Below are positions 26,406 to 27,536 of a stretch of 42,822 nt of DNA, piece by piece. The notes under the pieces are model-generated. The model saw only the letters and a list, made by a program, of their open reading frames with translations. It had not been told where the DNA came from and ran no database searches. The translations under genes and the position numbers were made by a program. Position 1 is the stretch's first letter, and each line of letters opens with the position of its first letter. Source of the DNA: a phage; assembly GCA_018167975.1 (NCBI GenBank), contig GCA_018167975.1_4333.1, one strand, 5' to 3'.

Positions 26406-27536
26406 ATGGCCCGGAAGAAAATAACCGACGAACAATTACAGGAAGAATTGAACGCCGGGATGAAGAATATAGATATAGCCCGTAAATACGGCATCTCAGA
26501 CCGCGTAATTCGTATACGTAAAGCGAAACTGGCTAAGAAAGGCGTAGGTCACGGGCGTGACGTTAGCCACCTTGTACCAGACGGATACAAGATTAAAGGC
26601 ACATCGTCGCTGGTGGACGAGTTCGGCAACACTAAGTTGCAATGGGTTAAGACTGATACCGATGCCGAACGTCAGGTCGAGTTGATGAAAGCCGTAATCG
26701 AAGGCATGAAGTCAGAGATTACCCCGGTTGCACCTGTTAAAGCCGTTCGCACCAAACGAGACGACAAGCTACTTAATCTTTACACTGTGTCTGATTTCCA
26801 TCTCGGTATGCTGGCTTGGGCCGACGAGAGCGGCGACGACTGGGACATGAAGATTGCAGAAGACCTGTTCTCCCGATGGTTCGATGCAGCATTTCAGAAA
26901 GCACCAGATGCCGGAACAGGAGTTATTAACCTGCTTGGGGACTTCGCACACTTCGATAGTCTTGATGCCGTCACCCCTGAGTCGCGCAATGTATTAGACG
27001 CTGATACTCGCTATCAGAAACTGGTCCGCTACATGATTCGTATGGTCCGACGTGTTGTTGATATGGCGCTGGTTAAACACAGGACTGTGAAACTTCTTGT
27101 CGTACAGGGGAATCATGACCCTGTAGGCTCTGTGTGGCTGGCTGAGATGTTCAGTACGCTGTACGACAATGATCCTCGTGTGCTCGTCGATACGTCGCCG
27201 GATGTTTACAAGATGGTCCAACACGGCAAAACTACGCTGTTCTTTCACCACGGGCATAAAGCCCGATTCGACGCTATTGAACCGGTTATGATTGCCAAGT
27301 TCCGTAAAGCATTCGGAGAGAGCGTTTACAGCTACGCCCACGTAGGCCACCTGCACCACCAGAAGATTGTAGAAAGCCGTAACATGGTTGTTGAGCAGCA
27401 CCGCACCCTAGCGGCTAAAGATGCCTACGCCTCCCGCGGCGGATGGATGTCAGGCCGTAGTGCAAATGTAATTACTTATAGCGCCGAATATGGTGAGGTC
27501 GCACGTTTAACTATTTCACCGGAGATGCTGGGATGA
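26406..27536 (+). CDS. HTH domain fused to calcineurin-like metallophosphoesterase (SbcD/Mre11-type motif set)
   Basis: 376 aa; N-terminal KNIDIARKYGISDRVIRIRK (HTH-like); phosphoesterase motifs SDFHLG (I), GDFAHFD (II), QGNHDP (III), FHHGH (IV), GHLHH (V); GAGGAAG RBS. Confidence 0.65.
   Translation: MARKKITDEQLQEELNAGMKNIDIARKYGISDRVIRIRKAKLAKKGVGHGRDVSHLVPDGYKIKGTSSLVDEFGNTKLQWVKTDTDAERQVELMKAVIEGMKSEITPVAPVKAVRTKRDDKLLNLYTVSDFHLGMLAWADESGDDWDMKIAEDLFSRWFDAAFQKAPDAGTGVINLLGDFAHFDSLDAVTPESRNVLDADTRYQKLVRYMIRMVRRVVDMALVKHRTVKLLVVQGNHDPVGSVWLAEMFSTLYDNDPRVLVDTSPDVYKMVQHGKTTLFFHHGHKARFDAIEPVMIAKFRKAFGESVYSYAHVGHLHHQKIVESRNMVVEQHRTLAAKDAYASRGGWMSGRSANVITYSAEYGEVARLTISPEMLG

Follow-up and report, generated by a model that had tools for sequence, protein, structure and literature searches.

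Which reaction, and on which substrate, is catalyzed by a phage protein that joins a helix-turn-helix (HTH) domain to a metallophosphoesterase (MPE) core is the question raised by a gene at positions 26406–27536 (+) of a 42,822-nucleotide stretch of phage DNA, referred to at its full length as the window. A preliminary description of this gene had proposed an HTH domain fused to the full calcineurin-like phosphoesterase motif set. Here we set out what the protein, its relatives and its gene neighborhoods indicate about its function.

A conserved phage gene with an HTH-like domain and an intact metallophosphoesterase motif set

The open reading frame (ORF) encodes 376 amino acids plus a stop codon, starts with ATG and is preceded by a Shine-Dalgarno sequence (AGGA) 8–9 nt upstream. 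The preliminary description had the ORF coordinates right, and all motif strings that it quoted are present in the order given. The superfamily motifs DxH, GD, GNH[DE], H and GHxH follow one another at residues 130–132, 178–179, 235–238, 282 and 314–317, and their conservation was assessed in 142 diverse representatives which are 31–50% identical to the protein studied here. Motif I, SDFHLG (residues 129–134; 26790–26807, +), contains D130 and H132, which are invariant in 142/142 representatives. In motif II, GDFAHFD (residues 178–184; 26937–26957, +), G178 and D179 are invariant, while H182 is found in 138/142 and D184 in 137/142 representatives. N236 and H237 of motif III, QGNHDP (residues 234–239; 27105–27122, +), are likewise invariant, as are H282 of motif IV, FHHGH (residues 280–284; 27243–27257, +), where position 284 is H or D, and G314 and H317 of motif V, GHLHH (residues 314–318; 27345–27359, +), where position 315 is H or D.

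The AlphaFold (AF2) model consists of a three-helix HTH (residues 8–44; helices 8–16, 21–28 and 32–44), a beta-hairpin/helix linker and an MPE core with a beta-sandwich fold (residues 119–376; 26760–27533, +), predicted to be binuclear, in which the motifs lie at the canonical ends of the core strands. The N-terminal domain (residues 1–46; 26406–26543, +), whose residues 20–39 read KNIDIARKYGISDRVIRIRK, is LuxR/GerE-like, with sub-threshold matches to GerE, FixJ and RhlR: it scores 15.8 bits against Pfam GerE (cutoff 23.5), and the family profile finds GerE (E 0.02), RhlR (0.1) and DesR (0.14) in the PDB. Some homologues carry precomputed Pfam matches to HTH_1, HTH_50 or HTH_28, and at least 59 residues precede W80 in all 142 representatives. 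The middle region (26568–26759, +) comprises the hairpin (residues 61–85, with a family motif ending in WVK), a helix (residues 87–104) and a linker; S67, G74 and W80 of the hairpin region are conserved, and the region is kept in the homologue of Campylobacter phage CP81, which is without the HTH. A further family-specific loop, TPESRNVLDADTR (26973–27011, +), with conserved T190, D198, D200 and R202 and the consensus TPxSxxLDxDxR, is flexible in the model (pLDDT below 50 at residues 187–197).

Taken together, this is a real, well-conserved phage gene with an intact MPE active-site set, an MPE fold and an N-terminal HTH-like domain, in agreement with the HTH-phosphoesterase fusion of the preliminary description. 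The invariant metal-ligand residues, a pairwise dN/dS of 0.03–0.08 against orthologues and the position of the motifs at canonical strand ends argue for an active enzyme. The scores against Pfam Metallophos (21.5 bits, cutoff 27) and Metallophos_2 (17.9, cutoff 21.5) both fall below gathering, which points to a divergent MPE clade; for some close homologues a PF12850 match is precomputed. The recognition helix evolves fast (dN 0.40 vs 0.05 for the core) and differs between lineages, which could even confer a lineage-specific DNA-site preference.

This architecture is already known: it is shared by a very widespread phage family, typified by gp16 of coliphage T1. The protein matches PHROG 704 with E 1.4e-162 (residues 4–375 against profile positions 2–389 of 390), and T1 gp16 and Rtp61 are full-length homologues which share the HTH, hairpin and MPE architecture as well as the invariant residues; Rtp61, annotated as "highly similar to gp16 of phage T1", is 44% identical. 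Protein searches started from the query or from an 8-sequence profile yielded no relative below 92% identity, and the diverse set was reached via a Rhodobacter phage homologue. The protein has 3,767 database relatives, and the family forms 4,622 clusters at 50% identity (E ≤ 1e-3). The family is represented in 2,045 of 50,697 phage records (~4%), spread over many phage families, the carriers including T1 and Rtp, Dhillonvirus, Webervirus, and Vibrio, Rhodobacter and Campylobacter phages, and 448 DNA-level relatives keep the gene. Among 5,426 complete E. coli genomes there was no DNA-level match to it, and plasmid matches were limited to 6 of 72,556 records, mostly phage-sized, non-mobilizable replicons, which points to phage genomes rather than resident E. 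coli prophages.

Public labels for the homologues read "DNA repair exonuclease", "metallophosphoesterase" or "winged helix-turn-helix domain-containing protein", and the first of these is purely computational. In the literature searched, no functional study, biochemical or genetic, of any member of the PHROG 704/T1 gp16 family was found, and the family does not appear in the CRISPRi-ART, HIDEN-SEQ and phage Tn-seq papers.

The gene cassette in the window

In this phage, as in other Guernseyvirinae, the gene is part of a cassette that lies within the tail module on the opposite strand, together with an Imm gene. A putative sigma-70-type promoter, picked out by eye (26096–26124, +; -35 AACACA, 17-nt spacer, -10 CATAAT), scores below the threshold of a consensus scan; the block is kept in the related phage Ivi, in K1ind2 and at locus L016, and its -10 element reads TATAAT in the latter two. 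The first gene encodes a 63-aa superinfection-immunity (Imm-like) membrane protein (26176–26367, +; PF14373 Imm_superinfect, E 6e-14; phrog_1039, E 3e-23). The location of the HTH-MPE gene and an Imm-like gene in one cassette, behind a plausible host-type promoter, gives a hint as to their expression. No operator or palindrome for the HTH was found 5' of the cassette, the only inverted repeat being inside the imm gene.

The HTH-MPE gene overlaps by ATGA, in an arrangement typical of translational coupling, with a 76-aa ORF (27533–27763, +) that occupies the variable slot of the cassette and matches phrog_2452 with E 2.5e-36, although this match covers no more than the C-terminal 70 of the 235 profile positions. 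This ORF has no Pfam match. It is not a remnant of the K1ind2 P-loop kinase, to which it shows no similarity, nor a relative of DUF3310 or dGTP_diPhyd_N (hhalign probability <1%), a kinship by which it would have become the commonest neighbor. A last small ORF (27714–27932, +) encodes 72 aa from a TTG codon or ~58 aa from an internal ATG, with Ivi annotating a 58-aa ORF at the same position, and matches no Pfam or PHROG family. The cassette ends in a GC-rich hairpin terminator between convergent genes (27937–27956, +; 8-bp stem with 6 GC pairs and a T-rich tail).

The strand opposite to the surrounding tail module and the terminator of its own give the cassette a moron-like look, and the gene had indeed been described as encoded in a moron. 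This is not borne out: its GC content (50.4%) is that of the window (50.6%), the gene is kept in the many DNA-level relatives and phage records counted above, and only the slot downstream of it varies across relatives. In other phages the gene usually lies amid replication, nucleotide-metabolism or lysis genes and, in T1-like phages, between the replication and lysis genes.

A proposed tethered DNA nuclease and its alternatives

The best explanation, which we hold at a probability of about 40%, is that the protein is an HTH-tethered, stand-alone DNA nuclease of phage DNA or nucleotide metabolism that uses two metal ions, probably Mn2+. The preliminary description had suggested a nuclease or phosphatase directed at DNA or at a nucleotide second messenger; the DNA nuclease survives as the preferred reading, and the second messenger found no support. 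We infer DNA as the substrate because nearly all members carry a fused HTH, because the MPE-type PDB entries matched by profile, at sub-significant scores, are nucleases, and because motif II is Mre11-like. Mre11 carries the motif GDLFHxxxPS, which the GDxxH of motif II and the downstream TPxS resemble. The LuxR/GerE-like HTH and the conserved beta-hairpin would hold the enzyme on duplex DNA, and a binuclear site formed by D130/H132, D179, N236/H237, H282 and H315/H317 would hydrolyze the phosphodiester backbone. Its most likely task would be the breakdown, during infection, of host DNA or of DNA ends into products that neighboring 3'-phosphatase, dNMP-kinase and dNTP-hydrolase functions could recycle; such a role would be distinct from SbcCD-type repair.

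By sequence profile, the only MPE-type PDB matches, all sub-significant, were Thermotoga maritima Mre11/SbcD and an MPE of Pseudomonas putida. The latter is a Mn-dependent ssDNA endonuclease (PDB 6NVO/6NVP) whose gene belongs to a conserved DNA-repair operon and which produces a mixture of 3'-PO4 and 3'-OH ends (PMC7826289). Like the enzyme proposed here, it is a stand-alone MPE nuclease, has no Rad50 partner and is encoded with DNA-repair genes, and one homologue of the 376-aa protein is automatically named after it in NR. It differs in its size of ~216 aa and in being without an HTH; its nuclease-specific residues are His81 and His113, and the match of the family profile to it is insignificant (E 1.2) and confined to motif III.

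Two phage proteins serve as precedents and offer further comparisons. A1 of phage T5, a predicted metallophosphatase, is both required for the degradation of host DNA and sufficient to cause it (bioRxiv 10.64898/2026.04.02.716235). Like the 376-aa protein, it is a stand-alone MPE-type protein of a virulent siphovirus, in T5 a pre-early one, and there is local likeness near motif III (ESNHDLALSRWL vs QGNHDPVGSVWL) and at the C-terminus. However, A1 is 556 aa long, has another N-terminal half and forms a separate PHROG (1745), the only one that it matches; homology was rejected, since hhalign gave 16–24% over 17–20 columns around motif III and A1 was not among the top 50 BFVD structural matches. 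The MPE gp48 of the cluster A mycobacteriophage A10ZJ24 disrupts host genomic DNA (PMC12287305); it has the five motifs, phosphodiesterase activity and early expression, but its motif I starts near residue 10 (D10G mutant), leaving no N-terminal HTH region. Against the DNA-nuclease reading, the profile links to SbcD and T5 A1 are not significant, several neighbors act on free nucleotides, the window itself carries no phosphatase, kinase or ligase partner, and these phages already carry other nucleases. T1-like phages possess RecE-like and VRR-NUC enzymes, and a 418-aa ORF in the window (9512–10768) is the likely counterpart, as matched by annotation rather than direct comparison, of a "putative exonuclease" of Ivi.

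The gene neighborhoods, which count in favor of DNA as the substrate, also bear on the alternatives. They were surveyed at 88 loci in 24 lineage groups, with families assigned by Pfam and c69/c89 homology by hhalign. A HAD_PNKP 3'-phosphatase was found in 5/24 lineage groups, a P-loop dNMP-kinase-like protein in 5/24, a dGTP_diPhyd_N (dNTP-diphosphohydrolase) domain in 5/24, an ATP-dependent DNA ligase in 3/24 and NinG, upstream, in 2/24. One alternative builds on the repair-like members of this set: the protein could be a nuclease that serves the phage's own DNA in end cleaning, repair or recombination. It would trim blocked or damaged ends and nicks, arising for instance from host defense nucleases or from recombination-dependent replication, and its partners would be a 3'-phosphatase of the PNKP type, a 5'-kinase and an ATP-dependent DNA ligase. 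Three loci (L048, L049 and L082) have such an operon of MPE, HAD_PNKP phosphatase, P-loop kinase and ATP-dependent DNA ligase; the ligase lies directly upstream in CP81, and in K1ind2 and Klebsiella phage PKP126 the MPE gene is immediately followed by phosphatase and kinase. The upstream NinG, the "DNA repair exonuclease" label and the repair operon of the P. putida enzyme, whose mixed 3' ends would need a 3'-phosphatase (PMC7826289), are in keeping with this role. The partner genes are, however, missing from the window (no phosphatase, kinase or ligase) and from many lineages, Dhillonvirus and Rtp among them, the P-loop neighbor is closer to dNMP kinases than to polynucleotide kinases (by annotation, with weak AAA matches), there is no Rad50-like partner, and dedicated recombination exonucleases are already encoded by these phages. 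We regard end repair as rather doubtful, although more probable than the further alternatives.

Several neighbors act on free nucleotides, which makes a nucleotide substrate possible. The protein might then be a phosphodiesterase or phosphatase acting on dNTP/dNMP pools or, as an anti-defense function, on cyclic-nucleotide immune signals, with the HTH serving regulation or localization. In addition to the dNMP-kinase-like and dGTP/dATP-diphosphohydrolase-domain proteins, the neighbors include DUF3310 and a HAD phosphatase. A precedent exists in the PUA-Cal-HAD defense, in which a calcineurin-like enzyme and a HAD phosphatase form a dNTP-degrading cascade (bioRxiv 10.64898/2026.01.15.699771). 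In the structural search, Mre11/SbcD ranked first only narrowly ahead of generic phosphodiesterases, and the small phosphodiesterases MJ0936, YfcE, Rv0805 and GpdQ scored nearly as high as Mre11. A DNA-binding-type domain is nevertheless fused in almost all members, the best structural and profile matches are nucleases, and we know of no anti-CBASS, anti-Pycsar or anti-Thoeris enzyme with this architecture, so that a nucleotide substrate appears unlikely.

It is more improbable still that the HTH is the main functional element and that the protein acts chiefly in regulating transcription, for instance that of late or lysis genes, or as a phosphoprotein phosphatase like lambda NinI, even though the HTH resembles LuxR/GerE and sigma-70 region-4 regulators, the N-terminus weakly matches phrog_836 ("late transcriptional activator") and holin/endolysin genes adjoin in five lineage groups. 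Finally, the "SbcD/Mre11-type" of the preliminary description does not hold as a statement of membership, and a genuine SbcD/Mre11 orthologue working with a phage or host Rad50/SbcC-type ATPase is highly improbable: the protein ends with the MPE core and thus has no capping domain, no Rad50/SbcC gene was found in the cassette, in the annotation of the related complete genome of Ivi or beside the 88 loci, identity to Mre11/SbcD is 13–16%, hhalign against E. coli SbcD gives a probability of 3%, hmmsearch against T. maritima Mre11 gives E 0.38, the NCBIfam SbcD models do not match, and both the N-terminal HTH and the TPxSxxLDxDxR loop set the protein apart.

Implications for T1 and other virulent siphophages

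For the preferred reading of a tethered DNA nuclease, degradation of the host chromosome is a speculative biological role. Both T1 and TLS break down the host genome and recycle its nucleotides, and a 2024 re-annotation explicitly leaves the responsible gene unidentified (PMC11447400). A 1981 paper cited there states in its title that transduction frequency is increased in T1 mutants with a defect in degrading the host chromosome. The HTH-MPE family is a concrete and easily testable candidate for this enzyme. It is a tentative proposal, and one that we consider less probable than a DNA nuclease as such, that the T1 gp16/PHROG 704 family represents the host-chromosome-destroying nuclease of T1-like and other small virulent siphophages, feeding nucleotide salvage and limiting generalized transduction. 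If true, phages would have turned the MPE fold to the destruction of host DNA independently for a third time, after T5 A1 and mycobacteriophage gp48, here as an HTH-guided, stand-alone nuclease.

The carriers of the family include T1, members of the BASEL collection and therapeutic candidates (Klebsiella Webervirus, Salmonella Jerseyvirus, and E. coli Kagunavirus and Dhillonvirus). If the protein is an end-repair enzyme, these genes may represent a phage-borne pathway for the repair of nicks and breaks, made up of nuclease, 3'-phosphatase, kinase and ligase. If it is the host-degrading enzyme, it would bear on host takeover, on the transduction risk of therapeutic phages and on the triggers of defense systems that sense chromosome breakdown.

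The gene, its family and its distribution

The metallophosphoesterase (MPE) gene occupies 26406..27536 on the plus strand of a genome belonging to a small virulent siphophage of the Guernseyvirinae/Kagunavirus type, and encodes 376 aa, with an ATG start and a Shine-Dalgarno sequence. The ORF and the motif strings quoted for it in the preliminary description are all present, in the order and at the positions claimed. The surrounding region (25900-28000) has DNA-level matches in 448 phage records, the best full-length one being Escherichia phage Ivi (90.7%), and the IMG/VR contig IMGVR_UViG_3300045988_017057 encodes a protein 100% identical to the MPE gene product. 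Comparison with six orthologues gives a dN/dS of 0.03-0.08, so strong purifying selection acts on the gene.

The protein matches PHROG 704 ('DNA repair exonuclease'), the family typified by coliphage T1 gp16, from end to end (E 1.4e-162). Its relatives comprise 3,767 matches in a 90%-clustered database and 4,622 clusters at 50% identity (E<=1e-3), 1,128 of these at E<=1e-30. By tblastn, homologues occur in 2,045 of 50,697 phage records, including Guernseyvirinae, Dhillonvirus, Drexlerviridae (Klebsiella Webervirus, and Rtp gp61, annotated as 'highly similar to gp16 of phage T1') and phages of Vibrio, Rhodobacter, Sulfitobacter, Flavobacterium and Campylobacter. Public names range from DNA repair exonuclease, phosphoesterase and metallophosphoesterase to DNA polymerase II small subunit and winged helix-turn-helix domain-containing protein. 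Given this spread and naming, the combination of a helix-turn-helix (HTH) domain with an MPE core is family-wide, already annotated and no peculiarity of the window's phage, whose gene is an unexceptional representative of a very widespread, already annotated phage family. None of 5,426 complete E. coli genomes has a DNA-level match to the gene, and the matching plasmid records (6 of 72,556) are mostly phage-sized replicons; judged by these searches, it is not a resident-prophage gene, at least for E. coli.

Predicted fold and conserved residues

An AlphaFold2 model (input alignment of 124 sequences; mean pLDDT 77.7, pTM 0.66) divides the protein into a bundle of three helices (8-16, 21-28 and 32-44), a linker of low confidence, a conserved beta-hairpin (residues 61-85) with a helix (87-104), and a beta-sandwich core that starts at residue 119 and runs to the C-terminal end. 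Each phosphoesterase motif is predicted to lie in the loop after a core strand (119-129, 169-177, 227-233, 276-282 and 308-314), which is the canonical MPE arrangement and agrees with the complete motif set initially proposed. Across 142 representatives with 31-50% identity to the query, D130, H132, G178, D179, N236, H237, H282, G314 and H317 are invariant and H182, D184, D238, H284 and H315 nearly so. Alignment and model together show an intact, strongly conserved predicted binuclear phosphoesterase site within a predicted MPE fold. Further family features are the invariant W80 of the 'WVK' motif, at the end of the hairpin, and a nearly invariant family-specific loop, T190-P-x-S-x-x-x-L197-D198-x-D200-x-R202, which is flexible in the model.

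The N-terminus carries an HTH-like domain. Its sequence matches are all sub-threshold and all to LuxR/GerE/FixJ-type HTHs (Pfam GerE, 15.8 bits, cutoff 23.5; in the PDB, using the family profile, GerE E 0.02, RhlR 0.1 and DesR 0.14), and precomputed HTH_1, HTH_50 or HTH_28 matches are present in some homologues. Between Kagunavirus-type and Jerseyvirus-type orthologues (window 26406-26543 compared with loci L026, L029 and L078), the HTH diverges about seven times faster than the core (dN about 0.40 versus about 0.05), and the changes cluster in the predicted recognition helix; lineage-specific recognition of DNA or a partner could explain this, as could relaxed constraint. Homologues in Campylobacter phages keep the hairpin and lack the HTH.

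The cassette and neighbourhoods in other phages

The plus-strand cassette containing the MPE gene is flanked by minus-strand genes for tail-assembly chaperones (two adjacent ORFs, 25217-25998; PF08748, PF23812) and the tail tube (27961-29133). The chaperone ORFs correspond to the joined (frameshifted) CDS annotated in phage K1ind2 and form the programmed-frameshift pair commonly found ahead of the tape-measure gene. The cassette opens with an Imm-type superinfection-immunity membrane protein gene (26176-26367, plus strand; PF14373), in which an 11-nt inverted repeat (26275-26285 / 26313-26323) has no obvious significance. Downstream of the MPE gene follow a translationally coupled 76-aa ORF (27533-27763) and a small last ORF, both on the plus strand, and a strong hairpin terminator at 27937-27956. 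A weak putative sigma-70 promoter (26096-26124; AACACA, 17 nt, CATAAT) lies in a conserved upstream intergenic block; it falls below the consensus-scan threshold, and some relatives have TATAAT. The preliminary description regarded the gene as part of a moron. The layout is indeed moron-like, but the MPE gene is not a typical moron: its GC content is genome-like (50.4% versus 50.6%) and it is found throughout the subfamily Guernseyvirinae.

The variable part in Guernseyvirinae is the slot downstream (window 27533-27932). In about a dozen loci, K1ind2 included, it holds a gene for a HAD_PNKP-type phosphatase and a P-loop (dNMP-kinase-like) gene (compared at L009 4128-5167, from K1ind2, and L004 5172-6238, from phage PKP126); the 76-aa ORF occupies it in the window's phage and a few others, and elsewhere an HNH gene or other small ORFs do. 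Matches of the 76-aa ORF to several longer PHROG families (phrog_2452, 17613 'ATPase', 13223, 18443, 35158 and 23361) are confined to their C-terminal ~60-70 positions, and in IMG/VR loci it clusters with proteins of 224-266 aa, which suggests a small mobile C-terminal domain.

Surrounding ORFs were clustered in 88 loci (80 from IMG/VR and 8 phage records), and neighbours within four genes were counted over 24 lineage groups, defined at 70% MPE identity. PNKP-type HAD phosphatases (PF25109), P-loop proteins annotated as dNMP kinases, endolysins and dATP/dGTP-diphosphohydrolase N-terminal-domain proteins (two homologous clusters) each occur in 5 groups, DUF3310 in 4, ATP-dependent DNA ligase in 3 and NinG in 2. 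The setting is consistently one of DNA and nucleotide metabolism, often bordering lysis genes. Three uncultured phage contigs (L048, L049, L082) have an operon of MPE, HAD phosphatase, P-loop protein and DNA ligase, which together make a full set for healing and sealing ends, and in Campylobacter phage CP81 (L007 2654-4951) the HTH-less homologue lies directly 3' of an ATP-dependent DNA ligase gene. The 'polynucleotide kinase' genes of K1ind2 (L009 4128-4613), PKP126 (L004 5172-5660) and T1 ST64 (L012 4948-5478) match only the PNKP HAD-type 3'-phosphatase domain (PF25109) and have no kinase domain, so this public name looks like a misannotation. In Dhillonvirus-type loci (L030-L040; L003) the MPE gene has yet another genomic position, the third: it follows holin/endolysin and closes the series of genes ahead of the genome end or packaging module, and beyond it comes a block with putative small and large terminase genes, placed by position, that ends in a ~500-aa portal-like candidate ORF.

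Candidate functions

The label 'SbcD/Mre11-type' given initially was not borne out. Foldseek returns a flat list of MPE enzymes (E about 1e-6), and the sole MPE-type sequences that the family profile finds in the PDB, T. maritima Mre11/SbcD (E 0.38) and the P. putida 'Nuclease MPE' (E 1.2), an ssDNA endonuclease, are not significant. An hhalign comparison with E. coli SbcD gives a probability of 3%, the protein has no capping domain, and no Rad50/SbcC-like partner is found in the cassette, in the annotation of the complete Ivi genome or beside the gene in the 88 loci. True SbcD membership is therefore rejected as highly improbable, and the protein belongs to a separate clade of stand-alone MPEs, the closest relatives of which tend towards nucleases.

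We infer that the substrate is DNA, because a DNA-binding-type domain is fused to the core, the structural and profile neighbours are nuclease-leaning, and motif II reads GDxxH with TPxS downstream, recalling the Mre11 signature GDLFHxxxPS. The earlier proposal of a nuclease directed at DNA is reasonable; a nucleotide-directed phosphodiesterase, including the second-messenger idea raised alongside it, is doubtful, and a role as a regulator or protein phosphatase is unlikely.

The biological role is a matter of speculation. Among phage MPE-type proteins, two that have been studied experimentally destroy host DNA: T5 A1, a predicted metallophosphatase that is both required and sufficient to degrade host DNA (bioRxiv 10.64898/2026.04.02.716235), and mycobacteriophage A10ZJ24 gp48, which shows phosphodiesterase activity and compromises the integrity of the host genome (PMC12287305). 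Kinship with T5 A1 is an unproven hint from local likeness at motif III (window 27105-27140, NHDxxxSxWL) and near the C-terminus (27460-27510, IITY...), where the paired strings of the two proteins (A1: L011 1709-3376) are ESNHDLALSRWL vs QGNHDPVGSVWL and HIITYANGQRTLI vs NVITYSAEYGEVARLTI; hhalign is non-significant (16-24% probability over 17-20 columns), and A1 belongs to a different PHROG and is absent from the top BFVD structural matches.

We rank first, at roughly 40%, a stand-alone nuclease held on DNA by its HTH, which would probably attack host DNA and feed nucleotide recycling beside the dNMP-kinase, phosphatase and dNTP-hydrolase genes, since this combination fits T1/TLS salvage logic. 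TLS and T1 degrade the host genome and reuse its nucleotides, and the early gene responsible was stated to be unidentified in the 2024 re-annotation (PMC11447400). A close second, itself tentative, is end-cleaning or repair together with phosphatase, kinase and ligase, favoured by the ligase operons and by the P. putida MPE, whose gene belongs to a DNA-repair operon and whose cleavage products carry a mix of 3'-PO4 and 3'-OH ends (PMC7826289).

In the literature searched, no published functional test of any PHROG 704 / T1 gp16 member was found. The interest of these observations lies in the family as a whole rather than in the window's copy: PHROG 704 is plentiful in model and therapeutic phages, and offers a specific candidate answer to a question that T1 biology has explicitly left open.
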